NCBI GenBank assembly: GCA_021325135.1
Contig: JAJPHT010000006.1
Location: forward strand, 1,034-65,033
Origin: Pseudomonadota bacterium
Lineage (GTDB): Archaea; Thermoplasmatota; SW-10-69-26; JACQPN01; JAJPHT01
Length of the DNA stretch: 64,000 nt
Direction of reading: 5' to 3'
The notes beneath the pieces were generated by a model. It saw only the letters and a program-made list of their open reading frames with translations, did not search any database and had not been told where the DNA came from. Numbering within the stretch: position 1 is the stretch's first letter; each line of letters begins with the position of its first letter. This document shows positions 9,217 to 60,412 of this stretch, one piece after another. Made by a program: the position numbers and the translations under genes.

Positions 9217-11640
9217 TCACGGCCGGACGCGCTCGAACGACGCGCCTCCGGGGGAGACGACGTAATAGCGCGGGACCCGGCCCTCCCTGCGGGACCGGAG
9301 GTGGCCGGAGCGCTCCAGCCCCAGGAGGTGGTAGCGCGCGAGCTGGCGGCTCATGCGGAGCCCCCGCGCGACGTCCGCGGCCGTGGCGCCAGGGGAGCGC
9401 CGCAGGAAGGCGAGCGCGTCGTCGGGCACGGCCCGCGCGGGCGGGGGCGCGGGCGAGCCGCTGGCGCGGTAGCGCCGGGCCCCCCACGACGTCTGCGCGA
9501 CGACGTACCCTTCCCGCTCCAGCACGCGGAGGTGGTGCGCGAGGGCCCCGTTGGAGAGGCCCAGCGCGCGGCGGATCTCCTCGTAGCGCTGGCCCGGGTG
9601 CTCCGTGACGTAGGCGTGGATGCCCGCGCGCAGGTCGCTGCGCAGGACGTCAGGCCGGGTGAGGCGCGAGGAGAGCGCGGCGGTCGCGAGGCCAAGCCCG
9701 TAGCGGCCGAAGCCCGCGGCCGCGGCGGCGCCCAGGAGGATCGCCAGGCCCAGCGCGGGGGCCGCGACGGCGAGCGCGGGGGCGCGGACGCCCTGCGCGG
9801 CGCCCCCTTCTGGCGTGGCGGCTGGCGCCGGGGTCCTCGGGGCCGGCGCCCCCGGGAGGGAGAGGGTGGGCAGGGAGGGGACGACGGGCGCGCTTCCCGG
9901 CAGGTCGGGGGTCCCCGGCGGCGCGGGGAGAGGAGCGAGCACGGCGCCGGGGGCGACCTCTCCGGGGGCGGCGCCCGTCGCGAGGGTCACGAGGCCCGAG
10001 GCCTGGTCGCCCCAGGGGTCGAAGAGCGGGACGGTGGAGAGCGCGTCCCCTCCGTCCGAGCCGGAGGCGTGCGCCAGCGCAAGGGGGCGGCCGCCAGGGA
10101 GCATGCCCATCTCCATGAGGAAGCCGATCATGGAGCCGCGCGCGTCCCAGGCGGAGTATGGCGCCCCGAACGTCCTGCCGCCGTCCAGCGACTCCACGAC
10201 GAAGGTGGCGGCGGGCCGGTCCGCGTCCCAGAAGGGGCGCACGTCGTCCCACATGAGCGCGACGCGCGGCCCGCTCACGGCCATGATGACGCTGCCCGAC
10301 CGGCGGGACTGGGGCACGAGGGCCGCCGCGTCGTAGAGCCCGTTGAGGGGCGTCACCTCGGTCGCGCCGGAGGGGAGCACGCGCGCGTAGTACGACGTGT
10401 CGTTCTCGAACTCCCCGATGCGGGGGTCCTCCGAGGGCCTGTCCACGTGGTGGAGGTCGTAGGCGAGGTGGACGACGCCCAGCGCGTCCAGCGCCATGGC
10501 GCCGAAGACCGCGCGCTCGGGGCCCCCCAGCCCGGCGACGGCGCGCGCCGCGCCGAAGCTGCGCCCGCCGTCCTGCGAGCGCGCCATGCGCCACTCCTCC
10601 GTGCCGTTGGCGTCCGCGTCGACCCACGCCAGGGCCACCTCCCCCGTGGGCGAGGCCGCCAGGCGCGCGCCCTCCAGCGCGTCGCCCCGCTGGGCGCGCG
10701 GCACGTCCACCGCGGGGCCCACCGATCCGTTGGGGAGGATGGCGCGCACGCGCAGGGGGAGCGGCTGGTCGAAGCCGGGGCCGGTGGCGTCGCGCGGGTA
10801 GGGGAGGCCCGCCAGCACCACGACGCCGTCCGGAAGCGCGACGGAGGACCCGCCGTAGAGGTCCTCCGGCAGCGCGCCCGAGCGCAGCGCCTTGCCGGTG
10901 AGGGCGTCGATGGTGACGAAACGGGTGGGCTCCGCGCCGTACTCCACGCCAGGGGGCGCCACCTTGTGGAATGATATCGTGGCGTCGCCGGCTCCCGTGG
11001 CGACCGAGACCGAGTTGTGGTCGACGCCGTGGGCGACCAGCGCGGGCTCGCCGAACGAGCGGCCCCCGTCGAGGGAGGCGCGGTAGAGCAGGTCGTAGCT
11101 CGTGCCTTCGATGAGCCGCTCGTAGACGACGCCCACGAGGCCCCCGGGCTGCACGACGAGGCGCCCCAGCGTGGGGGAGCCGAAGACCGGGTGCGTCGCG
11201 AAGCGGTGGGGCGCTCCGTCCTGCCGCGGCGCGACGAGGGCGGTGACGTTCTCGAAGAGCGAGGCGTTGAGCGCGTCGGTGAGGACGGGGAGCCGCACGA
11301 CGTCCGACAGGGGCGGCACCGGCGCGTCGGCGCGGGCGACGGAGACGTTGAGCGCGACGCCGGGGCGCACGTCGTCGAGGACCAGCCGCGCCGTCGTGTT
11401 CGCATCCACGTCCACCGGCACGACGCGGTCGACGACGGGCCCCGCCAGCGGATCGACGTGGCTCACGACGACCTGGACGTCCGCGGGGCCCGCCCGCGCC
11501 GTGACGTCCACCGCGAGCGCGCCCTCCGAGGACGCGGCCGAAAGCTCCACGGTCGCGGCGGGCGCGGGGCCCAGCGCGCCGGCGGGGAGGGCGGGCAGCG
11601 CCGCGACGAGGAGGAGGGCGAAGGCGAGACGGGCGCGCAT
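9217..11640 (-). CDS. membrane-tethered regulator: extracellular BNR/sialidase-like propeller, TM segment, two cytoplasmic winged-helix (ArsR-like) domains
   Basis: Contains a signal peptide MRARLAFALLLVAALPALPAGA. BNR-type repeats are SLDGGRSFG, SQDGGRSFG and SLDGGRTFG. A Pro-rich linker is followed by the TM segment APALAVAAPALGLAILLGAAAAAGFG. Two wHTH units follow (HPGQRYEEIRRALGLSNGALAHHLRVLEREGYV and SPGATAADVARGLRMSRQLARYHLLGLERSGHL). Confidence 0.75.
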   Translation of the reverse strand: MRARLAFALLLVAALPALPAGALGPAPAATVELSAASSEGALAVDVTARAGPADVQVVVSHVDPLAGPVVDRVVPVDVDANTTARLVLDDVRPGVALNVSVARADAPVPPLSDVVRLPVLTDALNASLFENVTALVAPRQDGAPHRFATHPVFGSPTLGRLVVQPGGLVGVVYERLIEGTSYDLLYRASLDGGRSFGEPALVAHGVDHNSVSVATGAGDATISFHKVAPPGVEYGAEPTRFVTIDALTGKALRSGALPEDLYGGSSVALPDGVVVLAGLPYPRDATGPGFDQPLPLRVRAILPNGSVGPAVDVPRAQRGDALEGARLAASPTGEVALAWVDADANGTEEWRMARSQDGGRSFGAARAVAGLGGPERAVFGAMALDALGVVHLAYDLHHVDRPSEDPRIGEFENDTSYYARVLPSGATEVTPLNGLYDAAALVPQSRRSGSVIMAVSGPRVALMWDDVRPFWDADRPAATFVVESLDGGRTFGAPYSAWDARGSMIGFLMEMGMLPGGRPLALAHASGSDGGDALSTVPLFDPWGDQASGLVTLATGAAPGEVAPGAVLAPLPAPPGTPDLPGSAPVVPSLPTLSLPGAPAPRTPAPAATPEGGAAQGVRAPALAVAAPALGLAILLGAAAAAGFGRYGLGLATAALSSRLTRPDVLRSDLRAGIHAYVTEHPGQRYEEIRRALGLSNGALAHHLRVLEREGYVVAQTSWGARRYRASGSPAPPPARAVPDDALAFLRRSPGATAADVARGLRMSRQLARYHLLGLERSGHLRSRREGRVPRYYVVSPGGASFERVRP

Positions 11641-14733: not shown

Positions 14734-15360
14734 GTGCGAACCCCCGCCATCCCCCTAGCGATCGCGCTGCTCCTGCTCACGCCAGGCGCTGCCGCCATCC
14801 ACGTCACCGCGCGCCACGCCGAGCCCATCCCGCTGGCCGCGGACGACGTTCCCCCCGTGGAGCTGCCGCTCCCGCTGCCCGACTCCCTGCCCACGGTGAA
14901 CGACCCGGTCCCCGTCCTCGTCGCGTGCCCGCCCGCGGAGCCTGACACCGTGGACGTCGTCGTCTGCCTCGTCTACTCGCCCCTGCCCCCCGCGCTGGAT
15001 GGCGAGGTGGCGGGCGCGAACGGCGCCGCCGCCCTCGCCTACGCGGAGGCGCGGCACGACGCGGCGACCGCGATCGCGCTGGCCAACGGCGGCGTCGCGG
15101 CGACGAACTCCGTGAAGGACGCCGCCCTCTCCACCGCGAACGCCGCGCAGGTCCCCGCCGACGCCCTCGTCAACGTCGGCCTCGACGTGGCCTTCAGCAT
15201 CGTCGTGCAAGGCGTCCTCGTCGCCACGGCGGTCCATGATTTCGCCGCCACGACCGCGGGCGCGGCGCAGGACGGCGCCCACCAGGCGTGCGTGGACAGC
15301 GGCGGCGGCTCGACCTGCGACCTCATTCCCCGCTACGACGTCCCCCCGATGCCCGATTGA
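14734..15360 (+). CDS. secreted protein, paralogue A of a tandem pair
   Basis: The GTG start gives the signal peptide VRTPAIPLAIALLLLTPGAAA. An alternative ATG lies at 14656. It shares CPP...C and ANxVK..A..TANAxQV blocks with the next gene. Confidence 0.5.
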   Translation: MRTPAIPLAIALLLLTPGAAAIHVTARHAEPIPLAADDVPPVELPLPLPDSLPTVNDPVPVLVACPPAEPDTVDVVVCLVYSPLPPALDGEVAGANGAAALAYAEARHDAATAIALANGGVAATNSVKDAALSTANAAQVPADALVNVGLDVAFSIVVQGVLVATAVHDFAATTAGAAQDGAHQACVDSGGGSTCDLIPRYDVPPMPD

Positions 15361-15415: not shown

Positions 15416-16018
15416 ATGAGCCGTTGTGCCCTCGTCCTAGCGTTCAGCCTGACCCTGCTCCTGCCCAGCTCCGTCGCCGCGAGCGACGGCCCCCTTCAGC
15501 CCGAGCCGCTCTCGACCCCCGACGTGCCCCCGGCGCAGGACCCGCTCCCCCGGGAGAACCCCGTCTACAGCCTGCCCCCGGTCATCGTGTCGTGCCCGCC
15601 CGTGGACCTGGGCCCGCTGGACGAGCCGGCGTGCGCCGTCCAGGAGTCCGTGGAGAGCGCGGCCAACGTGCCCACGATCCTCGTCCTTGAGATCGAGAAC
15701 GCCGCATGGGCGACCAGCCTGGAGGCCCGCGACGCAGGCTTCGCCGCCGCGAACCAGGGCATCTCCACCGCCAACGCCGTCAAAAACCAGGCCACGGGGA
15801 CGGCCAACGCGGAGCAGGTGGTCGTCGTCGACACCGCGAACGCGATCATCCGGGTCCTCCAGCCCCTTCCCCCGGACCTGCCCATCGGGCAGCTCATCCA
15901 GGACCTCTACGCGGTCGTCCTCGCGGCGCAGGGCGTCGTCCACGCCGACTGCGACGTCCTCGCGGGCCCCGTGATCTGCTCCATGGTCCCCATCGTGCCC
16001 CTGCCCGTGCTGCCCTGA
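15416..16018 (+). CDS. secreted protein, paralogue B of a tandem pair
   Basis: Signal peptide MSRCALVLAFSLTLLLPSSVAA. Matching blocks include VSCPPVDLGPLDEPAC vs VACPPAEPDTVDVVVC, and TANAVKNQATGTANAEQV vs ATNSVKDAALSTANAAQV. Confidence 0.55.
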   Translation: MSRCALVLAFSLTLLLPSSVAASDGPLQPEPLSTPDVPPAQDPLPRENPVYSLPPVIVSCPPVDLGPLDEPACAVQESVESAANVPTILVLEIENAAWATSLEARDAGFAAANQGISTANAVKNQATGTANAEQVVVVDTANAIIRVLQPLPPDLPIGQLIQDLYAVVLAAQGVVHADCDVLAGPVICSMVPIVPLPVLP

Positions 16019-16553: not shown

Positions 16554-16892
16554 TCACGATTTCGGTTTGCTTACCCTTGCTGCGATGAAGGCAAGGGGGA
16601 CTGCGAGGCAGAGGGTGATGCCGCCGGCGCCTGCGGCAAGGGCCAAGGGTCCTCCGGGGCCCGGCTGGAAGACGCAGGATGGAGTCGCCGTGGTCGTGTT
16701 GGTGGTCTCGGTGACCGTCTCGGTGGCGTTCGTGGTCGTGTTGGTCGTCGTAGTCGTGGTCGTGGCGTCTCCGTCCCTGCACGCGGGAAGGGCCAGGCCA
16801 GGGTGGAAGGATTCGAGGGTGCCCCAGACCAGGGAGAAGACCGAGAGGGGCGCAAGGATGGCCAGGCTGACCAGGAGGATCCTGGGTGCCAT
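16554..16892 (-). CDS. small secreted Thr-rich protein with C-terminal TM anchor and basic tail
   Basis: Has a signal peptide MAPRILLVSLAILAPLSVFSLVWG, a poly-Thr/Asn tract and a C-terminal PGPGGPLALAAGAGGITLCLAVPLAFIAARVSKPKS. Its start abuts the upstream gene's stop. Confidence 0.5.
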   Translation of the reverse strand: MAPRILLVSLAILAPLSVFSLVWGTLESFHPGLALPACRDGDATTTTTTTNTTTNATETVTETTNTTTATPSCVFQPGPGGPLALAAGAGGITLCLAVPLAFIAARVSKPKS

Positions 16893-17558
16893 CTAGTCGC
16901 CTCCCAGGCGTTGGAGGGCCTCTTGGGCTCGCTGGGCGGCCTCCAGGTATTCGGCCGCCTGGGTGGGGGTTGGCGCGAGCTCGCCCTTCTCGACCGCTTC
17001 GTGGATGATCTCCAGAAGCCGGAGGTGCACGAGGAGCTCGGCCGGCATGGCCTTGGCCCCGTGCGACGCCTCCACCATGTCCTTCGGCTTGGCGCGGGCC
17101 TTCGGGGTCCTCTTCGCCAGGCCCTGCGAGACCTGCGTCCAGCCGGATTGGATGGCGAGCGTGGGGTTGAGGGCGGCGAGGTGCAAGTCGGCCGTGGGGA
17201 CCGTCTTGGGTTCCTTGAGCGCCAAGATCGTCTGGCGGGTGGACCCTGGCGCGGGGGGCGGGGATGGACCGCCGCCATCGCCGGCATCTGGACTGGCGGA
17301 CTTGAGGGCGGCGAAGACGGCCTCCCACCCGTTGGGGCCCTTGACGCTCTGCAGGCGGGGAATGAGCGCGCGGAGGGGCTCGTGGAAGGCCAAGAGCACC
17401 AGGAGGGCAAAGGCGGGCCATGCCAGCGTCGCCAGAATCGTTGACAGGAATTCCAGCCAGTCCACGGACGCCACGACCTTCCGTGCGAGCTTACAAGTTT
17501 CTGTTTCAGAAGGCGCAGCGATCGCGTTGCATGGATGGGAACGGGGTGGAAGCGGCAA
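16893..17558 (-). CDS. membrane protein, unknown function
   Basis: The single TM WLEFLSTILATLAWPAFALLVLLAF is followed by a Gly/Pro linker and an alpha-helical C-terminal domain. The TTG at 17558 is the longest start; GTG at 17474 or 17465 is more plausible. Confidence 0.5.
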   Translation of the reverse strand: MPLPPRSHPCNAIAAPSETETCKLARKVVASVDWLEFLSTILATLAWPAFALLVLLAFHEPLRALIPRLQSVKGPNGWEAVFAALKSASPDAGDGGGPSPPPAPGSTRQTILALKEPKTVPTADLHLAALNPTLAIQSGWTQVSQGLAKRTPKARAKPKDMVEASHGAKAMPAELLVHLRLLEIIHEAVEKGELAPTPTQAAEYLEAAQRAQEALQRLGGD

Positions 17559-17616
17559 GGTGGAAAAAGCGAGAACAAGAAGGGAACACGATTCAACGCG
17601 TCTCTGGGCTCGGGAG

Positions 17617-18534
17617 ATGGCTCAACGCTGGGTCGTGGGTGAGTATAATCTGGTTTGGGCGCTTCTTCGCGCCGCCGGCCGTTGCCTTGCGGGCGACGCC
17701 GGGGAGTTGTGGAACGTGCGCGAGCCAGAGGCAGGGCGGGTAGGATTGGGCGAGATCGACGTCGTGGCGCCGGCGGCTTTGGAGGTGGAGGCGCGCGCGA
17801 TCAGGTTTCGCAAGATCCCCGTGGTGGAGTACGACTGGGAGGGCGACCACGAAGGCCCCCTGGCCGTGCCCGGAAGCGCCATGGTGTTCATCGCCAAGAA
17901 GGGCTCCCCCGTCCTCAAGGAGATCCGGGCCGCGGCGAAGGCCCGTAACGGGAGCGACGCCGGCGTGGCGCGAAAGGTCTTCTCGCCCTTCCGCGAGCGG
18001 CGCCCCATGGCGCTCGCCGATGCCGTGGAGCTCCTGAAGCGCCAGCCCGTCTTCGCCTCGATCCAGTACGGCGGCCTCACGCTGGCGACGTCGCTCTTCG
18101 TGGACGAGGGTCTCCACGCCTGCGTGGTTCCCCTTCCCTACAATGGAGGACGCCTGGCGAAGGAGGGGTTCACCCTCGTCGAGCACGTGAAGGACGGGGC
18201 CAAGGACGCGTTGGACGCGATCGTCCTGGCGCGAGCGCCTCCCCTGACGCCGGCCGAGAAGGCGGCCTTGCGCCGCGTCCCGGCAAGCCAGCTTGGCCTC
18301 AACGTGGGGAAGGCCGCGGACTGCTGGGGCGTCACCGCCATCGCCGTCGTCGCGGTCGTCGTCCTGGGCGTGGTCGCCGTCACCACCACCGGCTGCCATC
18401 CGGGCATGCGCGGCGGGCCCCTGGTGCGCCCACCCGCCATCGCGGCCGATCGCATCAAGAAGCTGGGCCCCGCCGCGACGGCTCGCGAGCTGCTCCGGCT
18501 GCGCCGGGAAGCCTTCTCCCAGGTCCAGAGGTGA
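17617..18534 (+). CDS. hypothetical protein with C-terminal Cys-bracketed hydrophobic segment
   Basis: The ATG at 17617 follows an AT-richer divergent intergenic region. There is no signal peptide. The C-terminal segment reads ...KAADCWGVTAIAVVAVVVLGVVAVTTTGCHPG.... The stop overlaps the next gene's start (GTGA). Confidence 0.5.
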   Translation: MAQRWVVGEYNLVWALLRAAGRCLAGDAGELWNVREPEAGRVGLGEIDVVAPAALEVEARAIRFRKIPVVEYDWEGDHEGPLAVPGSAMVFIAKKGSPVLKEIRAAAKARNGSDAGVARKVFSPFRERRPMALADAVELLKRQPVFASIQYGGLTLATSLFVDEGLHACVVPLPYNGGRLAKEGFTLVEHVKDGAKDALDAIVLARAPPLTPAEKAALRRVPASQLGLNVGKAADCWGVTAIAVVAVVVLGVVAVTTTGCHPGMRGGPLVRPPAIAADRIKKLGPAATARELLRLRREAFSQVQR

Positions 18535-19052
18535 AGTCCACGCCTGGCGCTCTCTTGGACGCCATGGTCGTGGCCCTCTTCGGCTCCTGGCTTCTCCTCA
18601 CCATCCTCTGCCAGGTCCCGGGCAGGGCATCGTCCTACCTGCGCACGTGGGACTTCCTTGGCCTGATCCCCGAGTGGAACTTCTTCGCGCCCCACCCCAA
18701 CACCGGGGATTACCACCTCCTCTACCGCGATCGGCTCCTTGATGGCAGCTTCACGGAGTGGACGGAGCTGCGCCAGAGCGAGTCGTACCGCTGGTGGCAT
18801 GCCGTGTGGAACCCGGCCCGGAGGCGCAAGAAGGCGCTCTTCGACCTGACCGCCGCCTTGGCCCGGGAGATCCGCGAGGCGCCCGACACCCTCCAGGTCT
18901 CCATGGCCTACCTCTCTCTTCTGCAGCACGTCTCCAGCCTGGGTCGCCCAGAAGCGGTGGTGGGAACGCAGTTCATGATCATGCGCTCCCACGGGATGAT
19001 CTCCACCCAAGAGCCGGACGTCATGATGGTCTCCGAGGTGCATGGGCTCTGA
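18531..19052 (+). CDS. small membrane protein, possibly SdpA-like
   Basis: N-terminal TM (MVVALFGSWLLLTILCQVPG) and motif LIPEWNFFAPHPNTGDY. It is translationally coupled upstream and lies just before an HTTM-like gene. The family assignment is from memory of SdpA/SdpB pairs and is not verified. Confidence 0.45.
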   Translation: MKSTPGALLDAMVVALFGSWLLLTILCQVPGRASSYLRTWDFLGLIPEWNFFAPHPNTGDYHLLYRDRLLDGSFTEWTELRQSESYRWWHAVWNPARRRKKALFDLTAALAREIREAPDTLQVSMAYLSLLQHVSSLGRPEAVVGTQFMIMRSHGMISTQEPDVMMVSEVHGL

Positions 19053-19072
19053 ACCCCTTCTCGGACCCCCAG

Positions 19073-19870
19073 GTGGCGGTCGGCGCCGTGGAACGCCTCA
19101 TCGCCGTCGCGGTGATCGTTTGCACCGCGGAGCTCCTGGCCCAGCCTCGCGTCCTGAGCGACGAAGGCCTCCTGGGGTGGGAGGTGGCGCGCCTTCGCCA
19201 CGCATGGTTTGTCCACGGCCCCCTCTCCTGGATCATGGACGCCTGCTGCAGCTATCCGCGCGTGCTCGTCCTCCTCGGCGTCCGCCTCCTGCTCGCCCTT
19301 GCGCTCCTCGTGGGCGTGCCCCCGGGCTGGCCGCACGTCCTCCTGCTGGGCGCCCTGGCCTTGGTCTGGATGATCTCCTTTCTCCGCGTGCCCCAGGGGG
19401 CCGACGGGGCTGACCAGATGATCACCCTCGTGCTCGTCTCCCTCGCCATCGCCGGCCTCGCCGCCATGATGGGCGCTCGCTTCGCCTGGAGCGTTGCCCT
19501 CGCCTTCGTCGCGCTCCAGGCCGTCGTCTCCTACGCCACGGCGGGCATCGCGAAGGCGACCTCCTCGTCCTGGAGGAGCGGCGCGGCGCTCCCGGGCATC
19601 GCCGGCACCGACATGTACGGCAACAGGTCCGTGGCGCGTTTTCTCCAAGCCCGACCCAGGACGAGCCGATTCCTCGCGCGGGGCATCATCGTGTGGGAAT
19701 GCTCCTTCGTCCTGGTCCTGCTCCTCCCCCTGCCGTGGGCGGTCCTCGTAGTGGCCAGCGGCGTCGCGTTCCACCTCCTGAGCGCCTTCGGGATGGGCCT
19801 CAACACCTTCCTGTGGGCATTCCTCGCCACCTACCCCGCCCTCTTCCACGCCCTTGGCTTCCTTGGGTGA
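19073..19870 (+). CDS. polytopic membrane protein, HTTM/SdpB-like
   Basis: Six or more hydrophobic helices and the motif PQGADGADQMITLVLVSLAI, resembling the G-x-DG-x-DQM signature I associate with SdpB/HTTM proteins. The start is uncertain; GTG 19073 is the first canonical start after the upstream stop. Confidence 0.5.
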   Translation: MAVGAVERLIAVAVIVCTAELLAQPRVLSDEGLLGWEVARLRHAWFVHGPLSWIMDACCSYPRVLVLLGVRLLLALALLVGVPPGWPHVLLLGALALVWMISFLRVPQGADGADQMITLVLVSLAIAGLAAMMGARFAWSVALAFVALQAVVSYATAGIAKATSSSWRSGAALPGIAGTDMYGNRSVARFLQARPRTSRFLARGIIVWECSFVLVLLLPLPWAVLVVASGVAFHLLSAFGMGLNTFLWAFLATYPALFHALGFLG

Positions 19871-19970: not shown

Positions 19971-20780
19971 CTAGCTGGCCATCCACATCAGCGCCCCGCA
20001 CCGCTCCTCGTGGCGCAGCTTCCCCTCCGTCTCCAGGGATAGCAATTTCTCGGTGGCCACGTCCTCCAGCCAGTCGCACGCCTCGGCGATCTCCGCCGTG
20101 GCGAGGCGGCCGTGGCGGCGCACGAGGTCCACGGGGTCGGGCGCGGGGGCGTCGACCCAGCGCGCGCCGCTGATGCGCGTGAGCGCGGCCTCGAACGCCT
20201 CGGTGGGCTGGAAGCCGGAGAGCGCGACCTCGACGCCGCGCGCGTTGCGGAAGACGACGGTGGGGAAGCCGGTGACGCCCTTGAGGCGCCCCTCGGCCTG
20301 GTCGCCGTAGAATTCCCGGGTGGCCTCGTCGGTCTCCATCGCCTCGCGGAAGCCCTGCGCGTCGACGCCGCAGGCCTTGGCGATCTCCTCCTGCACCTCC
20401 AGGGCCTCGATGTTGCGGCCGTCCATGAGGGAGGCCTCGCGCAGCGCGCGCAGGTAGCGCGGGAACGCCTCGGGCGAGACGAGGGCGGCGGCCTTGGCGG
20501 CGATGCCCGCGCGCACGGTGGTGCCGGGCCACGGCTTCAGCACGATGTCGGGGTCCAGGGGCATGCCGCTGGCGCGCCGCGCGGCGCTGAACATGCGGCG
20601 GATCTCCTCGCGGGGGAACTCGGGGCCCACGGGCGACTCGACGATGGCGCCCAGCTTCACGCGGAAGTCGATCCCCTCGCCGTGGCGCTCCTTGAGGCGC
20701 AGCAGCTGGGGCTCCAAAGCCCAGCACCACACGCTCCACGGGTCCGTGTAGTGCGTGACGACGACGGGATCGTGGCGCAT
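19971..20780 (-). CDS. DsbA/FrnE-like thioredoxin-fold protein with C-terminal winged-helix-like domain
   Basis: MRHDPVVVTHYTDPWSVWCWALEPQL (the active-site position reads SVWC, so one Cys only) and GFPTVVF (cis-Pro region). No signal peptide. The ~60-aa C-terminal extension reads LATAEIAEACDWLEDVATEKLLSLETEGKL. Confidence 0.65.
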   Translation of the reverse strand: MRHDPVVVTHYTDPWSVWCWALEPQLLRLKERHGEGIDFRVKLGAIVESPVGPEFPREEIRRMFSAARRASGMPLDPDIVLKPWPGTTVRAGIAAKAAALVSPEAFPRYLRALREASLMDGRNIEALEVQEEIAKACGVDAQGFREAMETDEATREFYGDQAEGRLKGVTGFPTVVFRNARGVEVALSGFQPTEAFEAALTRISGARWVDAPAPDPVDLVRRHGRLATAEIAEACDWLEDVATEKLLSLETEGKLRHEERCGALMWMAS

Positions 20781-20880
20781 CGGCCTGGCCAGCGGGCTTG
20801 GGCGCATCAGGGTTGCGGGAGACGAATCGTCGCCGGCCGCAGCGCAAACGCTCATGCGCCCCCGCCCTCCTGGCGCCTCC

Positions 20881-25688: not shown

Positions 25689-26060
25689 GTGGCGGAAGCG
25701 ACACTCGGGAAGTACGTTCCCATCCTCATGTTGGCCGCGCTGGGCTTCGTCATCATCTTCGTGACGCTCATGCTCACGAAGCTGGTCGCCCCGCGCCGTC
25801 CCACCGCAGGCTTCCTCTCCACCTACGAGTCGGGCGAGGTGCCGGTGGGCAACGCCCGCGGGCCCATCGACGTGCAGTACTACCTGTACGTCATCGTGTT
25901 CCTCGTCATCGACATCGAGGCCGTCTTCCTGATCCCGTGGGCGCTGCGCTTCGCGAAGCTGGGCGCCGCGGGCCTCGTGGAGATGGCCATCTTCGTCGGC
26001 CTCGTCCTCCTGGGCTGGGCCTACGCCTGGAAGAAGGGGGCGCTGGAGTGGCAAAGCTGA
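25689..26060 (+). CDS. nuoA: NADH-quinone oxidoreductase-like complex subunit A
   Basis: [26 protein letters not shown]...YESGE...[22 protein letters not shown]. The start is GTG 25689 (alternative ATG 25626). Confidence 0.8.
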
Positions 26061-26590
26061 TCACGCAGATCGGGGACACCGACGTGGCCCCGGACAAGGA
26101 CCCCAACATCATCCTCACCCAGGTGGACAAGCTCCTCAAGTGGGGGCGCTCCAACTCGCTCTGGCCCCTGGGCTTCGGCCTCGCGTGCTGCGCGATGGAG
26201 ATGTTCGCCACCATCGGCTCCCATTATGATATCGCGCGCTTCGGCAGCGAGGTGTTCCGCTCCTCGCCCCGCCAGGCGGACCTCATGATCGTGCCCGGCA
26301 CGCTCACGAAGAAGATGGCGCCCCGCGTGAAGAAGCTCTGGGACCAGATGCCCGAGCCCAAGTGGGCCATCGCCATGGGCGCGTGCGCCACCTGCGGCGG
26401 CCCCTACCAGAACTCCTACTCCACCGTGCTTGGCGTGGACAAGGTCATCCCCGTGGACGTGTACGTCCCGGGCTGCCCTCCGCGCCCCGAGATGCTGCTG
26501 GAGGGCCTCATCCGCCTCCAGGAGAAGATCCGCGCCGACCCGCGCATCAGCCCCGGCCTGGAGAAGTACCTCACGCGGAAGGTGGCCTGA
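26048..26590 (+). CDS. nuoB: complex I subunit B (N2 cluster subunit)
   Basis: [22 protein letters not shown] and VPGCPPRPE motifs. The GTG start overlaps the nuoA end. Confidence 0.9.
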
Positions 26591-27592
26591 GTGGCCCTTC
26601 CCGACAGCGGCAGCGTCGAGGACTACACCGAGGCCGAGATGGCCGAGCTGGTGAAGCTCAACGAGACGGACAAGTCGAAGCTCACCAAGAACCAGAAGGC
26701 CGCCATCGCCCGCTACAACTTCAAGAAGGGCAAGGGCGAGCCCATCCCGTTCAAGGGCAGCGGCGTCGCGGCCGCGCCCGCCCCCGCCGGTGCGGCCGCA
26801 CCTGCGGCCGCCGCCGGCATGGACGACATCATCAAGTCGCTCCCCCCGGAGATCCAGGCCCTCGCCGCGCGCGACCCGGCCTCGCTCTCCAAGGATGAGA
26901 AGATCGCGCTGGCCAAGGCCAAGAGCCAGGCCGTCCGCGCGCAGGCCGCCGCGGGCAAGCCCGCCGAGCCCGAGAAGCCCAAGGGACCCACCCCCGAGGA
27001 ATTGGCCGCGCAGAAGGCGCTCACCTTCGCCTGGGCCAAGGAGCTTGACGGCAAGTTCGGCAAGACCGAGCCGAAAGGCGAGGGGCCGACGAGCCGCAGC
27101 TCGTTGGGCCCAGCCATCGACGCGTGGGGCATGCAGACGCAGATCCCCTACGCGACGGTGAAGCCCGAGCGCATCCTGGACGTCGTGCGCTACCTCCAGA
27201 TGGAGATGGGCTTCGACCAGCTTCGCGACCTCGCGGGCACGGACTACCCGCCCACGCACCTCGAAGTGGTCTACAACCTGACCTCCCACGAGGGGCACCG
27301 CCACATCGCGCTCAAGGCCAAGGTCCCCCGCCAGCCCGCGGAGGGCATGGACCTGCCCGCGCTGCCCAGCGTCTCGTCGGTGTTCAAGGGCGCCGACTGG
27401 CTGGAGCGCGAGGTGTACGACCTCCTGGGCATCCGCTTCCTGGGCCACCCGTACATGGTGCGCCTGATGCTGCCCGAGGGCTGGGTCGGCCACCCCCTGC
27501 GCAAGGACTACGACCTCAAGACCGAGCAGTTCGTGGGCCTCGACGAGAAGGGCAACGACATCGTGAGCTTCAGGAGTGAGGACGGATGGTAA
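26591..27592 (+). CDS. nuoC: complex I subunit C with long N-terminal low-complexity extension
   Basis: The C-terminal ~165 aa are NuoC-like (LRDLAGTDYPPTHLEVVYNLTSHE..., ADWLEREVYDLLGIRFLGHP). The first ~185 aa are Lys/Ala/Pro-rich. Confidence 0.85.
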   Translation: MALPDSGSVEDYTEAEMAELVKLNETDKSKLTKNQKAAIARYNFKKGKGEPIPFKGSGVAAAPAPAGAAAPAAAAGMDDIIKSLPPEIQALAARDPASLSKDEKIALAKAKSQAVRAQAAAGKPAEPEKPKGPTPEELAAQKALTFAWAKELDGKFGKTEPKGEGPTSRSSLGPAIDAWGMQTQIPYATVKPERILDVVRYLQMEMGFDQLRDLAGTDYPPTHLEVVYNLTSHEGHRHIALKAKVPRQPAEGMDLPALPSVSSVFKGADWLEREVYDLLGIRFLGHPYMVRLMLPEGWVGHPLRKDYDLKTEQFVGLDEKGNDIVSFRSEDGW

Positions 27593-28764
27593 CGCCAGTC
27601 CCCCCCGTGCGCGCGCCGCACACGCCCACCCACGGGGCCCACGGCCAGCGCCTCGTCATGATCAACATCGGCCCCCAGCACCCGGCCACCCACGGCGTGC
27701 TGCGCCTGAAGGTCATGCTCGAAGGCGAGATCATCCGCGACGTGGAGCCCGTGCTGGGCTACCTCCACCGCGGCGTCGAGAAGCTCTTCGAGGACGGCAG
27801 CTACCTCCAGGCCATCCCCATGACGGACCGCCTGGACTACCTGGCGGCCATGCACAACAACTACGCGCTCTGCCACAGCGTCGAGACGCTCATGGGCGTC
27901 AGCGCGCAGATCCCCGAGCGCGCGCAGTACATCCGCGCCCTCACCACCGAGGTCCAGCGCATCGCGTCGCACCTGCTCTGGCTGGGCGCCTTCGCCCTGG
28001 ACATGGGCGCCATGACGGTCTTCTGGTGGGCCGTGCGCGACCGCGAGGGCGCCATCGCGCTCCTGGAGCGCCTCTCGGGCGCCCGCCTCACGTACAACTG
28101 GTTCCGCATCGGCGGCGTTAAGAACGACCTGCCCCCCGGCTGGCTCGAGGAGTGCAGCCGCTACATCCGCTACATGCGGACGCGCCTCCAGGAGTTCGAC
28201 AACCTCCTCCTGGACAACGACATCGTCAAGCTCCGCACCGTGGGCGTCGGCCCCCTCACCAAGGAGATGGCGAAGAACTACGGGTGCAGCGGCCCCATGG
28301 CGCGCGGCAGCGGCCTCGACTGGGACCTGCGCCGCGACGAGCCGTTCAACCCCGTCTACCAGAAGATCAAGTGGAACGTCATCACGCGCAAGGAGGGCGA
28401 CGCCTACGCGCGCTTCATGTGCCGCTTCGGCGAGATGACGGAATCGCTGAACATGCTGGAGCAGATGATCGCCCAGATCCCCTCGGAGGGCGACTACATC
28501 AGCCCGGAGATCGGCGAGGGCCCGCGCCAGCACCGCGTCAAGCCCCCCGCGGGCGAGGTGTACGCGGCCGTCGAGGGCGCGCGCGGCGAGTACGGCTGCT
28601 ACATCGTGAGCGACGGCACCAACCGCCCCTACCGCTTCAAGTGGCGGGCGCCCACGCTGCACAACCTCATGCCGCTGAACGAGATGGTGCGCGGCCAGAA
28701 GATCCCCGACCTCATCGTGGGCCTGGGGAGCATCGACATCGTGCTGGGCGACATGGACCGGTGA
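27586..28764 (+). CDS. nuoD: complex I subunit D
   Basis: INIGPQHPATHGVLRL, LGYLHRGVEKL and WRAPTLHNL...LGSIDIVLGDMDR. Confidence 0.95.
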   Translation: MVTPVPPVRAPHTPTHGAHGQRLVMINIGPQHPATHGVLRLKVMLEGEIIRDVEPVLGYLHRGVEKLFEDGSYLQAIPMTDRLDYLAAMHNNYALCHSVETLMGVSAQIPERAQYIRALTTEVQRIASHLLWLGAFALDMGAMTVFWWAVRDREGAIALLERLSGARLTYNWFRIGGVKNDLPPGWLEECSRYIRYMRTRLQEFDNLLLDNDIVKLRTVGVGPLTKEMAKNYGCSGPMARGSGLDWDLRRDEPFNPVYQKIKWNVITRKEGDAYARFMCRFGEMTESLNMLEQMIAQIPSEGDYISPEIGEGPRQHRVKPPAGEVYAAVEGARGEYGCYIVSDGTNRPYRFKWRAPTLHNLMPLNEMVRGQKIPDLIVGLGSIDIVLGDMDR

Positions 28765-28770
28765 GACGCC

Positions 28771-29829
28771 ATGGCTTTCCTCCTTCCCGACGCCATCACC
28801 AACCTCCTGGAGCCCTACACGGGCCACGTCGCGGCGCGGCTCATCGCGTGGTTCGTCATCGCGTTCCTCCTGCTCAACTTCGTCATGGCCGTGGGCGGCC
28901 TCATGAGCTACATCATGCGGAAGTTCATGGCCCGCGTGCAGACGCGCGTCGGCCCCAACCGCGTGGGCCCCTTCGGGCTGCTCCAGTTCCTCGCCGACGG
29001 CGTGAAGATGGTCGCCAAGGAGGAGGTGCGCCCCGCGCAGGCCGACAAGTGGGCCTACCGCATCGCGCCCTACCTCGTCCTCCTCCCCATCATGATCGCG
29101 ATGGCGCCCCTCCCCTTCGGCGAGGGCGTGCTCCTCAGCGACCTGCGCTTCGGCTTCCTCTTCATCATCGCCGTCTCCGCCATCTCGCCCATCGGCGAAT
29201 TGGTCGCGGGCTGGGGCAGCAACAACAAGTACGCGACCTACGGCGCCGTGCGCGCGGCCTCCCTGGACGTCTCCTACGAGATCCCCATGGTGCTCGCGGC
29301 CGTGAGCGTCGTCATCCTCGCGGGCTCTCTCTCCACGCAGGACATCGTGGGCCACCAGCAGCCCCTCTGGTTCGTCTTCCTCCAGCCCGTGGGCGCGTTC
29401 ATCTTCTTCGTGTGCGCGCTGGCCAAGGCCGGCGTCGTCCCCACGGACCTCGGCGAGTCCGAGTCCGAGCTGATCGCGGGCTGGTTCACCGAGTACGGCG
29501 GCATGAAGTTCGGCATGTTCCAGCTCAACGTCTTCTTCGGCGTCGTCTTCATCGCGATGCTGGAGGTCATCCTCTTCTTCGGAGGCTGGAGCGTGCCCTT
29601 CGTCACGAGCGCCGTCGCGTTCAACATCGACTGGCTGCCCCTCCTGGGCGTCGTCGTCTTCCTCGCGAAGACCGTGATCCTCACGAGCATGGTGCTCCTG
29701 ACCTGGTTCACGCTGCCCCGCCTGCGGCCCGACCAGTTCCTCACCCTGGGCTGGAAGGTCCTCTTCCCGCTGGCGCTCCTCAACCTCGTGGTCACCGCGG
29801 GCTTCGTCTACTACCTCGGAGGTGCTTGA
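28771..29829 (+). CDS. nuoH: complex I subunit H
   Basis: MRKFMARVQTRVGPNRVGPFGLLQFLADGVK and a multi-TM body. Confidence 0.95.
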   Translation: MAFLLPDAITNLLEPYTGHVAARLIAWFVIAFLLLNFVMAVGGLMSYIMRKFMARVQTRVGPNRVGPFGLLQFLADGVKMVAKEEVRPAQADKWAYRIAPYLVLLPIMIAMAPLPFGEGVLLSDLRFGFLFIIAVSAISPIGELVAGWGSNNKYATYGAVRAASLDVSYEIPMVLAAVSVVILAGSLSTQDIVGHQQPLWFVFLQPVGAFIFFVCALAKAGVVPTDLGESESELIAGWFTEYGGMKFGMFQLNVFFGVVFIAMLEVILFFGGWSVPFVTSAVAFNIDWLPLLGVVVFLAKTVILTSMVLLTWFTLPRLRPDQFLTLGWKVLFPLALLNLVVTAGFVYYLGGA

Positions 29830-30283
29830 TATCACCCGCATTCCGGTCGTCGGCATGGCGAAGGGATTCAAGGAGACGCTCAACGCGTTCTTCAAGAAGC
29901 CCGTGACCGTGGAGTACCCCGAGGAGTTCCGCGACGTCCCCGAGAACTACCGCGGCCGCATCAAGGTCTACATGGACCTGTGCGTCGGCTGCACCACCTG
30001 CTCGCTGGTGTGCCCCAACGCGACCTGCCAGATGGAGGCGGTGGACTACCACCACCCCAAGAACAAGCGCGCGATCTTCCCGCGCATCGACGTCATCAGC
30101 TGCATGTACTGCGGCCTCTGCGAGGAGGCGTGCCCCACGGACGCCATCCGCCTGGAGAAGGAGTTCCCCGTCAGCATGTACGACCGGAGCCTCTTCGACT
30201 ACGACTCGTACGAGATTTCCAAGGACCAGGGCCAGGTGGACCTGGAGCGCGCCCAGAAGGGCGGAGCGAGCAAGATCCCCTGA
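29822..30283 (+). CDS. nuoI: complex I subunit I (2x[4Fe-4S] ferredoxin)
   Basis: CVGCTTCSLVCP and CMYCGLCEEACP. GTG start (alternative ATG at MAKGF). Confidence 0.9.
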   Translation: MLDITRIPVVGMAKGFKETLNAFFKKPVTVEYPEEFRDVPENYRGRIKVYMDLCVGCTTCSLVCPNATCQMEAVDYHHPKNKRAIFPRIDVISCMYCGLCEEACPTDAIRLEKEFPVSMYDRSLFDYDSYEISKDQGQVDLERAQKGGASKIP

Positions 30284-30769
30284 GTGGAGACGAGACGCAT
30301 GCTCATCGAGATCGCGTTCCTGGCCATCGCCGCGTGGGTCCTCCTCAGCGCCGTCATGGTCCTCGTGGCGAAGGAGCTGGTCCACGCGGCCGTCTGGCTC
30401 GCCAGCATGATGGTGGGCGTCGCGGGCGTGTTCATCACGCTGGGCGCCGAGTTCCTGGCCACCATCCAGATCCTCGTGTACGTCGGCGCCGTCATCACGC
30501 TGATCCTCTTCACCGTGATGCTCACGGTCCCCGAGGAGAAGATCGACTTCCTCGACGAGGTCTACCTGCCCCCCGGCGTGCAGATCGAGTCCGTGCAGGA
30601 GATCCAGAAGGCGGTCCCCACCTTCGGCGGCGTCGGCCCCTACAAGGACCTTGACACCACCAACCCGCGCCGCCCCCTGCGCAAGCCCACGACGCTCTAC
30701 GGCGTGAGCCTCGCGGACAACGAGTACGGCACCGACCAGACCGACCGCAGCAAGGAGGCCAAGCCGTGA
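30284..30769 (+). CDS. nuoJ: complex I subunit J, N-terminal portion
   Basis: AEFLATIQILVYVGAVITLILFTVML. The alternative ATG at 30299 (MLIEIAFLAI) is perhaps more likely. Confidence 0.8.
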   Translation: METRRMLIEIAFLAIAAWVLLSAVMVLVAKELVHAAVWLASMMVGVAGVFITLGAEFLATIQILVYVGAVITLILFTVMLTVPEEKIDFLDEVYLPPGVQIESVQEIQKAVPTFGGVGPYKDLDTTNPRRPLRKPTTLYGVSLADNEYGTDQTDRSKEAKP

Positions 30770-31083
30770 GCGACCCCGAGACGCAGGCCGCGCCGACGCC
30801 CGACGACAAGGCCGCGAGGCGCGCGAAGTCCTGGAAGGAGACGAAGACGGACCTCAAGTGGGCCACCGCGCTCCTCTTCACCCTCATCCTCGCCATCAGC
30901 GGCTACCTGTGGTCCTTCTGGACCCCCGCGCCCGCCACCGAGGAGAACATCAACGCCATGACCGACGGCATCTTCGACCCCAACGGGCCGCTCCTCGTGC
31001 CCTTCGAGGTGCTCAGCGTCCTCCTCCTCGCGGCGCTGGTCGCCGGCGTCGTCATCGCCATGCGCGAGATGGAGGCGGACTGA
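30766..31083 (+). CDS. complex I subunit J, C-terminal portion (split nuoJ)
   Basis: Single TM plus the terminal helix PFEVLSVLLLAALVAGVVIA, typical of the NuoJ C-terminus. Translationally coupled (GTGA overlap). Confidence 0.6.
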   Translation: MSDPETQAAPTPDDKAARRAKSWKETKTDLKWATALLFTLILAISGYLWSFWTPAPATEENINAMTDGIFDPNGPLLVPFEVLSVLLLAALVAGVVIAMREMEAD

Positions 31084-31398
31084 ATGGTGGACCTCACGCT
31101 CCAGACCTCGTGGTACTTCATCCTCAGCACCGCCATGTTCGGCGTCGGCCTCTACGGCGTGCTCTCCCAGAAGAGCGGCATCCGCCTGCTCATGTCCATC
31201 GAGATCATGCTCAACGCGGCGAACATCAACTTCGTCGCCTTCGGCGCCATGTACGGCCAGGCGACGGGCTTCGTCTACGCGCTGTTCGTCATCGCCATCG
31301 CCGCCGCCGAGGCCACCGTGGGGCTCGCGATCTTCGTGAACCTCTTCCGCGTGCGCCGCACCATCGATCTCGACCAGATCAAGACGCTCCAGGGGTGA
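31084..31398 (+). CDS. nuoK: complex I subunit K
   Basis: 104 aa with 3 TM segments, LMSIEIMLNAANINFVAF...AAAEATVGLAI. Confidence 0.9.
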   Translation: MVDLTLQTSWYFILSTAMFGVGLYGVLSQKSGIRLLMSIEIMLNAANINFVAFGAMYGQATGFVYALFVIAIAAAEATVGLAIFVNLFRVRRTIDLDQIKTLQG

Positions 31399-31403
31399 CG
31401 TGA

Positions 31404-35288: not shown

Positions 35289-35289
35289 G

Positions 35290-48718: not shown

Positions 48719-48756
48719 GGGGACGCACCAACGGCCGCCGCCAGCGGGGCGCGCCT

Positions 48757-49140
48757 CTATAAGATTGACGGGGGGCCAGACCGCAAGCGGCGCAGCGTCC
48801 ACGCGCCCGCGCCCGAGGCGAGCAGCCCGCCGGCGAGGGACGCCCACACCCAGCCGCCCTCGCCCTGCGCGAGCGCCCACGCCGAGGCCGCGAGCGCGAC
48901 GAGCCCGGCCACGAGGAGCCCCGCCCCCGCCGCGGCGCGCAGGCCGGCGCCCAGACGCGCGCCCGCGACCGCGAGCCCCAGGCCCGCGCCCACGAGGGCG
49001 TAGAGGGGCGCGCGCTCCCCCCTTTGGCCGCAGCCCGCGGAGCAGTCCGCGACGAGGAAGAGGAGCCCGAAGAAGAGGGCCACCAGGGCACCCGCCAGGA
49101 CGAGGAGGAGGGAGAGCGCGATCCGGGGCGCGTGGCGCAT
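48757..49140 (-). CDS. small polytopic membrane protein
   Basis: From MRHAPRIALSLLLVLAGALVALFFGLLFLV, four Gly/Ala/Leu-rich helices. Upstream of, and co-oriented with, thrS. Confidence 0.4.
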   Translation of the reverse strand: MRHAPRIALSLLLVLAGALVALFFGLLFLVADCSAGCGQRGERAPLYALVGAGLGLAVAGARLGAGLRAAAGAGLLVAGLVALAASAWALAQGEGGWVWASLAGGLLASGAGAWTLRRLRSGPPSIL

Positions 49141-49198
49141 GCCAACCCCATGACGTCGCCCCCACAAGGCTCATCTCCTCCCGGGCCGAGTCGCGGGC

Positions 49199-49597
49199 GT
49201 GCACCAGGGCGCCAAGGTGGGGCTCCTCCTCCTTCTCGTCGTGGCCGGCGGCGCGCTGGCCTACGCCGGGAGCCGCCCCGAGGGCTACCAGGGCGTGGGC
49301 GACGTGGTGGCGAACCCCGCGGCCTTCGCGGGGAAGGACCTCCAGCTCAAGGCCACCGTGGTCGAGGGGAGCGTCAACCGCACCGGGGCGCCCATCACGT
49401 TCGTCATCGAGGACGGCCACGCGCGCCTCCCCGTGCAGTGGGACCCGCAGAAGCCCCTCCCCGACCAGGAGGCGGGCGGCACCATCGAGGGGAAGAACGT
49501 CGTCGTCACCGGCTACGTCGTCTCGGACGCCGCCGGCGCGCACCTCGTCGCGCGAGACCTCAGCGTCGGCTGCGCGAGCAAGTACCGCCCCGCCTGA
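49199..49597 (+). CDS. ccmE: cytochrome c maturation heme chaperone CcmE, CxxxY variant
   Basis: N-terminal TM anchor and an OB-fold region collinear with E. coli CcmE (GSVNR...ITFVIED...NVVVTG). The C-terminal VGCASKYRP aligns with the canonical AKHDENYTP. Confidence 0.7.
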   Translation: MHQGAKVGLLLLLVVAGGALAYAGSRPEGYQGVGDVVANPAAFAGKDLQLKATVVEGSVNRTGAPITFVIEDGHARLPVQWDPQKPLPDQEAGGTIEGKNVVVTGYVVSDAAGAHLVARDLSVGCASKYRPA

Positions 49598-49677
49598 ACC
49601 CATCCACCTCCGCACCAGGTGCGCGGCCGAAGGCGCTATCCCCCGGCCCGCGCCTCCAGGGCCGGAGGCACCACCTC

Positions 49678-60394: not shown

Positions 60395-60412
60395 CTCGCG
60401 CGCCAGCGCGAG

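Follow-up and report, generated by a model that had tools for sequence, protein, structure and literature searches.

We analysed a 64,000-nucleotide stretch of contig JAJPHT010000006.1 (the window), in which an earlier reading of the sequence alone had described, between 16554 and 19870, a lower-GC island of five membrane-protein genes with an SdpA/SdpB-like pair in an archaeal genome. We refer to these genes as g1 to g5. The conserved unit at this locus is g3-g4-g5 and not the five genes, and g1 and g2 are unrelated neighbours that lie outside the conserved module. We consider it rather probable, if well short of certain, that g3, g4 and g5 encode a split, quinol-dependent membrane enzyme resembling the vitamin K-dependent carboxylase GGCX together with its co-encoded client, and that they form a horizontally acquired module of bacterial type.

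The conservation of the three genes was observed in a scan of GTDB (one genome per species) with an alignment of the g5 family, which gave 162 loci; linkage was counted in the best 80 of these. All of these best 80 loci are bacterial and come from many phyla, among them Actinomycetes, Bacteroidota, Acidobacteriota, Planctomycetota and Chloroflexota, and soil-dwelling members of many phyla contain the module, one copy at each locus. As judged with a hidden Markov model (HMM), the g5 homologue is preceded on the same strand, within ∼1.1 kb, by a g4 homologue in 79 of the 80 loci, and the two are directly adjacent in 77. Thus, g4 is an obligate upstream partner of g5. A full-length g3 homologue stands beside the g4 and g5 homologues in 33 of the 80 loci (upstream in 32), and the order g3-g4-g5 recurs in metagenomic bacterial contigs, one of which adjoins dnaA, yidC and rnpA. 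A tree of g5 separates the loci with g3 from those in which a short gene precedes g4.

The 83 other loci that we examined have no counterpart of g1 or g2 next to the module. In addition, g2 had no match in Pfam or NCBIfam and no relatives in a metagenome scan, and g1 gave only low-complexity, mucin-like noise in Pfam. The gene upstream of g3 in one locus (L005) was considered as a counterpart of g2 and was found to be unrelated on comparison. One could argue that all five genes are a single functional island in which g1 and g2 work with g3 to g5, as the GC content at third codon positions (GC3) is lowered in all five, a presumed divergent promoter region is common to both sides and all five lie beyond a synteny break at 16367. 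However, the lack of counterparts in 83 loci, the lack of relatives of g2 in the metagenome scan and the end of similarity to the closest relative at 17747 make this very improbable. The five-gene island of the sequence-only reading was therefore given up: what the closest relative has in common with the window is limited to 17747-19870, and its flanks differ. Co-occurrence in other genomes, by which that reading had proposed to check the island, holds for g3, g4 and g5 and not for g1 and g2.

The membrane protein g5 and its partner g4

Direct scans of all five proteins against Pfam and NCBIfam yielded nothing above threshold, in agreement with the earlier statement that the co-encoded proteins match no recognised family; the library scans gave no named family for them. 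The sequence of g5 itself has no Pfam match at E ≤ 1 and none in NCBIfam. Its 82 homologues are mostly bacterial (e.g. from Ktedonobacteraceae, Streptomyces and Nocardia) and several carry PF05090. When family members were scanned singly, 18 of 43 matched the HTTM model PF05090 (best E 2.2e-9) and 37 of 62 matched the SdpB family TIGR04033 at E ≤ 0.1 (best 5.5e-9). As far as these profile matches indicate, the HTTM membership of g5 is transitive and remote, reached through its relatives. The AlphaFold2 model of g5 (predicted local distance difference test, pLDDT, 95.7; alignment of 62 sequences) displays the HTTM transmembrane (TM) fold. In a Foldseek search of the PDB the top nine matches were all cryo-electron microscopy structures of human GGCX (TMq 0.54-0.64, probability 0.98-1.0) and all other matches stayed below 0.3; the sequence identity between g5 and GGCX in these matches was ∼14-16%. 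The description of g5 as SdpB/HTTM-like is thus upheld by its relatives and by its GGCX-like fold, although its own sequence misses the models. A scan of viral contigs for the HTTM family found none, and in a metagenome scan for close relatives of g5 no match that covered most of the protein exceeded 41% identity.

Six residues of g5 (Y154, G158, K161, W167, H234 and F246) are invariant in alignments of 43 and of 62 family members. E209 (at least 90%) and a motif that begins at R105, R-x3-G-x-DG-x-DQ, are nearly so, and the stretch PQGADGADQMITL, to which the sequence-only reading had drawn attention, is present in g5 and sits inside this motif. Against a human GGCX sequence of 758 residues, hmmsearch and hhalign gave the same register, in which K161 pairs with K218, E209 with D263 and H234 with H287. 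In GGCX, vitamin K hydroquinone is deprotonated by K218 and D263, and a D263E variant retains activity (PMC13486548). Because K161 and E209 are retained in the register of GGCX within an HTTM fold, we read g5 as a minimal and remote HTTM protein that keeps the epoxidase residues and is distantly related both to SdpB and to the epoxidase domain of GGCX.

The partner g4 consists of an N-terminal TM helix and a domain of ∼140 residues, and its family is marked by the motifs P-x-W-x-FFAP-x-P, DYHLLYRD and WNP-x-KR-x-KKALFD. The segment LIPEWNFFAPHP, also pointed out earlier, was confirmed in g4, where it forms part of the conserved P-x-W-x-FFAP-x-P motif. The sole recurrent Pfam match in the g4 family is DUF5819 (PF19136). 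g4 scored 18.4 bits against it (E 0.0034), which does not reach the gathering score of 27.1, and weak matches were seen in 11 of 16 relatives at E ≤ 1 and in 7 of 53 at E ≤ 0.01 (best E 1.3e-4), none of them above the gathering score. g4 would therefore be distantly related to DUF5819, a remote relative and not a member. Its layout is that of DUF5819-type proteins: a TM helix and a ∼140-residue domain, coded next to an HTTM protein.

No SdpA model in Pfam or NCBIfam matched g4 at E ≤ 1, and none of 16 relatives matched (NCBIfam E ≤ 0.1, Pfam E ≤ 1). The profile searches by which the sequence-only reading had proposed to check g4 and g5 thus returned SdpB and HTTM, by way of the relatives of g5, and no SdpA. 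What remains of an SdpA-like g4 is a small, N-anchored protein linked to g5, with sub-threshold similarity to DUF5819 only; on these grounds a functional analogy to SdpA is proposed, not a homology. We also observed by eye a similar W-x15-YRD spacing in g4 (W49...Y65-R66-D67) and in GGCX (SWDMM...TYRD), which no tool confirms and which we treat as a lead only.

The g3 family and the proposed reaction

An exhaustive profile search (E ≤ 1e-3) placed g3 in a family of 523 clusters at 50% identity. The N-terminal part of the protein is an alpha/beta domain of uncharacterised type, its last ∼100 residues form a ‘cassette’, and it is without a signal peptide. No Pfam or NCBIfam match recurred among 63 members of the family and no PDB sequence was related to it. 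The g3 model (pLDDT 70, core ∼85) had no Foldseek match in the PDB or BFVD; of the structure predictions and fold searches that had been suggested as a check, only that of g5 led to a known structure, GGCX. Two other ideas about g3 were tried: that g3 and g4 are paralogues, which was rejected on comparison, and that g3 is the missing half of the GGCX clamp, for which no support was found.

Column statistics over 63 members revealed four elements in the cassette. An N-motif of the form P-x-L-T-x-A-E-x-A-A-L opens it. There follows a hydrophobic segment of ∼25 residues, which is almost without charge, differs in sequence between members and often has Cys at either end. A short acidic patch comes next and then a conserved C-terminal basic helix with the family form L-G-P-A-A-x-A-R-x-L-L-x-x-R-R; just before the helix stands a position that most members fill with an acidic residue (AADRI here). 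The helix is proposed to be a docking element.

In loci that lack g3, the gene just upstream of g4 codes for a short protein of 75-220 residues. We built an HMM from the g3 cassette alone and ran it over 6,862 six-frame open reading frames (ORFs) at E ≤ 1. In the g3-less loci, 31 of the 32 matches were the ORF directly upstream of g4, and they came from 28 of 49 loci, including that of the haloarchaeon Halorubellus litoreus. The short upstream proteins carry, like g3, a C-terminal ‘[ST][LA]xxL[LI]xxR’ helix, and many have ‘LTKAELAxLD’ as an N-terminal motif; between them the middle is highly variable and may be hydrophobic, rich in Ala, Val and Thr, or made of acidic repeats. A two-motif pattern, defined post hoc, was found in 25 of 48 upstream ORFs and in none of 3,527 other ORFs. 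Judged by these motifs, the enzyme pair of this subfamily appears to travel with a small, recognisable partner gene, either a full g3 or a short cassette protein, and the short upstream proteins resemble a family of peptides that may be clients of HTTM systems. Examples are L014:3018-3344, L067:3086-3322, L072:2995-3327, L064:3040-3384 and L003:5471-5767, with equivalents in ∼28 loci. Long acidic or Gly-Asp/Glu-Pro tracts, (EP)n, (GDA)n and (GIDGV)n, occur in the variable middle of the upstream ORFs of L012, L058 and L083 and in P0113; such tracts would be of interest should acidic residues be what the enzyme carboxylates.

The third protein combines strict linkage to the pair with a variable core between conserved ends. 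A dedicated client, such as SdpC is for SdpAB (PMC6818787), is expected to show this pattern, and by this analogy a client is what the third protein most likely is. In the mechanism that we propose, g5 would be the equivalent of the quinol-epoxidase half of GGCX, and the ∼140-residue domain of g4 would cap it, in the role of the GGCX lumenal ‘clamp’, of DUF5819 or of SdpA. g3 would be the client, as substrate or specificity subunit, and would dock through its C-terminal basic helix. g5 would bind the reduced respiratory quinone of the host; Lys161, assisted by Glu209, would deprotonate the quinol, and oxygenation of the quinol would yield a strong base. This base would then drive carboxylation, or another base-dependent modification or processing, of g3 beside its hydrophobic segment.

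The charges of the loops suggest on which side of the membrane this may take place. Lys and Arg on the K161-side loops of g5 amount to 9.3 as compared to 0.4 on the other side, in 62 of 62 sequences, and those flanking the TM helix of g4 amount to 2.7 on the C-terminal side versus 0.06 on the N-terminal side, while the GGCX loop equivalent to the K161 side has a net charge of -4. These values favour a cytoplasmic location of the K161 side of g5 and of the g4 domain, i.e. a predicted active site that faces the cytoplasm. Such a site fits both a g3 without a signal peptide and MloH, a prokaryotic enzyme of this type that acts on cytoplasmic intermediates.

Several observations weigh against the enzyme-and-client reading. 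The g4 and g5 proteins of the window fall below every curated family threshold, and the tie of g4 to DUF5819 is sub-threshold only; an hhalign comparison of the g4 family with the lumenal region of GGCX was not significant. Searches of PDB sequences with sequences and profiles of g5 relatives found no GGCX, so that the likeness of g5 to GGCX was seen by the fold search alone. The register of the catalytic residues was read against a GGCX sequence for which the check covered its length and the numbering of H160 and K217/K218 only, and the tree of g5 is a rough neighbour-joining one without support values. Furthermore, no known substrate or enzyme was detectably similar to g3. The Glu of its N-motif is replaced by Gln or Asp in some short homologues and is therefore not an obligate carboxylation site. 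Finally, the hydrophobic segment of g3, if it spans the membrane once, puts the two conserved motifs on opposite sides, which is awkward for a purely cytoplasmic client.

We also weighed whether the substrate of g4 and g5 is a small molecule, such as a quinone or lipid (e.g. in menaquinol epoxidation or lipid remodelling), with g3 in a structural or regulatory role. The conserved epoxidase residues would suit this, truncated GGCX-like epoxidases without protein substrates, fused to desaturases, have been proposed in giant viruses (PMC13486548), and MloH acts on a small-molecule intermediate. A quinone redox cycle is hinted at by oxidoreductase genes: DCC1-like ones after g5 in Bacteroidota loci and, in the window, a DsbA-like gene convergent on g5, both of which may be quinone-recycling partners. 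However, no genes of lipid or quinone biosynthesis are conserved in the neighbourhood, and the third gene shows the client pattern, with conserved terminal motifs and a highly variable middle, in every lineage, and we regard this alternative as unlikely. The DCC1-like thiol-disulfide oxidoreductase lies directly downstream of the g5 homologue in 28 Bacteroidota loci (e.g. L014:4756-5184). The DsbA-like (Thioredoxin_5) gene occupies 19971-20855 on the minus strand and is not conserved next to L089, the locus of the closest relative.

The sequence-only reading had suggested a toxin-like maturation and export module. In Bacillus, the first three quarters of SdpC are conserved and its C-terminal hydrophobic domain varies, the SDP peptide corresponds to C141-S182, and SdpA and SdpB are needed for the processing (PMC6818787). 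A maturation of the SdpABC/YitPOM type would make g3 a pro-toxin whose Cys-started hydrophobic segment is excised by g4 and g5 and released as a membrane-active peptide. The architecture of g3 resembles that of SdpC, its hydrophobic segment is variable in sequence and flanked by Cys, and the g5 family is distantly SdpB-like (through the 37 of 62 weak TIGR04033 matches) and has an obligate small partner. On the other hand, g3 lacks the signal peptide that SdpC and YitM have, its tail after the hydrophobic segment is strongly conserved, and many of the short homologues have a charged, non-hydrophobic middle. Neither SdpA nor SdpC profiles matched, profiles of SdpC, SdpI and SdpR found nothing among the five proteins, and no such family, hence no immunity or regulator gene of the SdpI/SdpR kind, recurs next to the module in the 80 neighbourhoods; PADLOC gave no match to a defence system. 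That soil bacteria from many phyla have the module, each locus with a single copy, also speaks against a toxin. Thus we consider this version distinctly improbable, and the proposed export or toxin function was not borne out: no SdpC, SdpI or SdpR homologue and no PADLOC match came to light. The idea of maturation survives as a modification of a co-encoded protein, with g3 as the likely client, whereas export and toxicity are without evidence.

The enzyme-and-client reading can be extended to a widespread and undescribed prokaryotic system of three components, in which a minimal HTTM protein would act as quinol epoxidase under a DUF5819-like cap and the client would be recognised through the ‘[ST][LA]xxL[LI]xxR’ helix. 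Its active site would face the cytoplasm, opposite to that of GGCX, it would subject the client to a modification like that of vitamin K-dependent carboxylase, and horizontal transfer would have brought it into Thermoplasmata and separately into haloarchaea. In this full form we put it forward tentatively, as a possibility that may well prove wrong in one part or another.

Origin of the module, gene layout and host

That the g3-g5 module was acquired from bacteria and relocated as a three-gene unit is well supported and is the most likely account of its presence here, because its distribution is bacterial, its tree position is nested, its GC3 is anomalous, synteny breaks near it and the flanks of L089 differ. 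In the rough g5 tree, the g5 of the window and one close relative, L089, nest among bacterial loci of the g3 type and far from haloarchaeal HTTM. L089 is 83% identical in nucleotide sequence over exactly 17747-19870 and unrelated on both sides; downstream of the module it has a gene of the AP-endonuclease-2 fold where the window has the DsbA-like gene. Synteny with a related Thermoplasmata metagenome-assembled genome (MAG), L086, spans the cystathionine beta-synthase gene and a 103-aa gene and ends at 16367, just before g1. A plasmid search found distant actinobacterial matches and one match in Haloplanus only. Atypical composition on the one hand and a foreign phyletic pattern with variable context on the other, as in acquired islands, are thus both present, and the horizontal acquisition anticipated by the sequence-only reading agrees with the bacterial best 80 of 162 loci, with GC3, with the end of synteny and with the L089 flanks. 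HTTM stands for ‘horizontally transferred transmembrane’ domain, a name that anticipates such transfers, and for this reason the archaeal location alone is only mildly surprising.

The composition of the region differs from the rest of the window mainly at the codon level. GC3 is 0.81 in g1, 0.88 in g2, 0.90 in g3, 0.89 in g4 and 0.91 in g5, compared to a median of 0.966 in 46 other ORFs (those of at least 150 aa outside the region, from a GC3-based gene caller) and to 0.94-0.99 in the immediate flanks, and in a frame-agnostic sliding analysis the five-gene region was the lowest-GC3 3.3-kb stretch of the whole window. Bulk GC is slightly low (0.674-0.695 in 1-kb bins versus 0.715 for the window overall) and is lower still at 29-32 kb. 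The claim of a lower GC content therefore holds chiefly for codons and marginally for bulk GC, and the sliding-window comparison that had been put forward as a check does distinguish the region from its flanks by GC3. The lowest-GC 300 bp of the window fall within the g2/g3 intergenic region, which had indeed been named as the most A/T-rich part.

The foreign phyletic pattern and the atypical GC3, the rarity in archaea and the single close relative (83% nucleotide identity) might also mean that the module was transferred recently and that this archaeon carries it as a non-functional passenger. Yet all three ORFs are intact and keep the catalytic residues, the 83%-identical copy keeps its three ORFs open as well, consistent with purifying selection, and a GC3 raised to ∼0.9 implies long residence. 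We give this explanation hardly any weight.

The five ORFs that had been described in 16554-19870 were located at the coordinates in Table 1 in the ORF listing and by reading of the window, and the same five genes are called publicly on an identical 7-kb contig. The N-terminus of g1 is signal-like, its middle is rich in Thr and its hydrophobic C-terminal anchor is followed by basic residues; the start of g1 abuts the stop codon of g2 with zero gap. The left-operon protein given earlier as a single-TM protein of 16893-17558 has the N-terminal TM helix, but the public call covers 16893-17474. The region between g2 and g3, presumed from its sequence to be a promoter region, contains a TATAAT/TATA-like element at ∼17643-17648 (by reading). 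The g3 stop codon and the GTG start of g4 overlap by 4 nt (GTGA), while g4 and g5 are 20 nt apart, so that of the ‘three translationally coupled genes’ strict overlap exists at the g3/g4 junction only. The 305-aa protein of the right operon exists as an ORF from ATG 17617, but the start of g3 is probably GTG 17716 (272 aa), because the first 45 residues of the longer ORF are not conserved and have low pLDDT: homologues are ∼260-280 aa long without covering these residues, and one that is 85% identical has 273. For g4, the 173-aa start suits the family better than the 162-aa public call.

Table 1. Positions in the window of the five genes and of features in and between them
Feature	Position	Strand	Description
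g1	16554..16892	-	112 aa; small Thr-rich surface-type protein
g2	16893..17474	-	193 aa (public call), N-terminal TM helix; longest ORF reaches 17558
g2/g3 divergent intergenic region	17475..17715	.	AT-rich, GC 0.60; presumed promoter region
g3	17716..18534	+	272 aa (probable start); longest ORF from ATG 17617 is 305 aa
g3 cassette N-motif PPLTPAEKAAL	18238..18270	+	Glu (E181, 272-aa numbering) 97% conserved, 63 members
g3 uncharged hydrophobic segment CWGVTAIAVVAVVVLGVVAVTTTGC	18322..18396	+	Cys-flanked; column statistics, 63 members
g3 C-terminal basic helix LGPAATARELLRLRREAF	18463..18516	+	A256, R263 and R264 nearly invariant
g4	18531..19052	+	173 aa, single-pass membrane protein
g5	19073..19870	+	265 aa, polytopic membrane protein
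g5 Lys161 codon	19553..19555	+	Invariant; aligns to GGCX catalytic base K218
g5 Glu209 codon	19697..19699	+	At least 90% conserved; aligns to GGCX D263

The host is confirmed as archaeal by marker sequences of the window, as the sequence-only reading had held. A threonyl-tRNA synthetase with an archaea-specific editing domain (E 6e-44) is encoded at 46823-49615, there are matches to V_ATPase_I (V/A-ATPase subunit I) and HTH_HVO_0163, and the adjacent cystathionine beta-synthase groups with a protein named ‘Thermoplasmata archaeon’, whose contig also encodes TFIIB and Gar1.

Other features of the window were observed away from the module. Two tandem paralogous proteins of secreted type (208 and 200 aa; 14734-15360 and 15416-16018, plus strand), of which one was tested and had no family match, sit between the cystathionine beta-synthase gene and the 103-aa gene; these two genes are directly adjacent in L086, and the pair looks like a local insertion or duplication. 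An 807-aa ORF at 9217-11640 (minus strand), with C-terminal HVO_0163-type and MarR-type helix-turn-helix domains, is absent from the syntenic L086, which joins the sequence matching position 11694 of the window directly to that matching 9208. The longest ORFs for the threonyl-tRNA synthetase (46823-49615, minus strand) and for a succinate dehydrogenase/fumarate reductase flavoprotein (50019-52688, plus strand) have ∼280-300 N-terminal residues before the domain and GC3 of 0.89 and 0.81, respectively; their true starts are probably further downstream, the long ORFs being an artefact of high GC. Eleven packed, co-directional ORFs at 25937-36876 (plus strand; 217-775 aa, GC3 0.88-0.99, at least 0.95 in ten) suggest, from their sizes, a respiratory-complex or antiporter-type operon. 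The tRNAs nearest to g1-g5 lie at 60.1-60.4 kb and are a divergent tRNA-Gly(GCC) (60102-60176, minus strand) and tRNA-Leu(TAA) (60310-60395, plus strand), of which only tRNA-Gly reaches the Rfam gathering score.

Comparison with known systems

A close parallel is found in the bacterial pairs of DUF5819 proteins and adjacent HTTM(-DCC1) proteins, which are predicted in a 2026 preprint to form a complex like whole GGCX with DUF5819 as the clamp, MloH being a fused version of the pair (bioRxiv 10.64898/2026.08.19.745780). As in the example from Melghirimyces thermohalophilus, the HTTM protein is adjoined by a small protein in which an N-terminal TM helix is joined to a domain of ∼140-160 residues, and the Lys/Trp/Phe triad near the predicted menaquinol pocket is conserved with nearly the same spacing (K161, W167 and F246 as compared to K189, W195 and F273). 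By architecture and genomic position g4 would fit the role of the clamp, while by sequence it is distant. The differences are that the g4 family matches DUF5819 only below threshold, that g5 has 265 residues instead of 447 and no fused DCC1-like domain, that the host is archaeal and that a conserved third gene, undescribed in that study, precedes the pair. In B. subtilis SdpABC/YitPOM, an HTTM-type SdpB and a small SdpA likewise process a co-encoded protein that has a conserved N-terminal part and a variable hydrophobic C-terminal domain. In contrast to these systems, the module has no SdpA or SdpC profile match, its order is client-partner-HTTM and not A-B-C, g3 has no signal peptide and a conserved tail, and there is no immunity locus of the SdpI/SdpR type. 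Failing the thresholds of both SdpA and DUF5819, the pair is, as far as the sequences tell, a distant variation on what is seen in DUF5819/HTTM and SdpA/SdpB.

Human GGCX shares with g5 the HTTM transmembrane fold and has equivalents of its Lys and Glu in the catalytic Lys and D263. It differs in being a single chain of 758 residues with a large lumenal domain, a part that g4 would presumably supply in trans, in the low identity of ∼14-16%, in the loop charges, which suggest an opposite membrane orientation of g5, and in its Gla-type (γ-carboxyglutamate) substrates, which have no counterpart here. MloH of malonomycin biosynthesis, a fusion of HTTM with a DUF5819-like region, is a prokaryotic GGCX-like enzyme with a cytoplasmic substrate, and it sets a precedent both for an active site that faces the cytoplasm and for carboxylation chemistry on targets other than Glu; it is fused and lies inside a polyketide synthase-nonribosomal peptide synthetase cluster, whereas the module described here is split and stands alone without biosynthetic genes nearby. 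The truncated gamma-carboxylase-like epoxidases of giant viruses (PMC13486548) are also minimal HTTM proteins with an equivalent of K218 and a Glu at the position of D263 (E209 in g5). However, desaturases and VKOR are fused to them or lie next to them and a clamp-like partner is lacking, whereas the module has an obligate g4 and neither VKOR nor desaturase. The conserved third gene with its docking-like C-terminal helix, and the presence of the module in a Thermoplasmata genome, appear to be new relative to the literature searched.

The characterised prokaryotic HTTM cases, SdpAB and MloH, are few and mutually different. To our knowledge, prokaryotic HTTM proteins are common and the function of the relatives of GGCX and SdpB is almost unknown. 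The locus documents a bacterial module that was, most likely, transferred into a Thermoplasmata archaeon, and it leads from a compact HTTM subfamily that curated models miss to a concrete candidate substrate, g3. If the three-component system outlined above is true, it would provide the first defined class of protein substrates for bacterial and archaeal HTTM enzymes.

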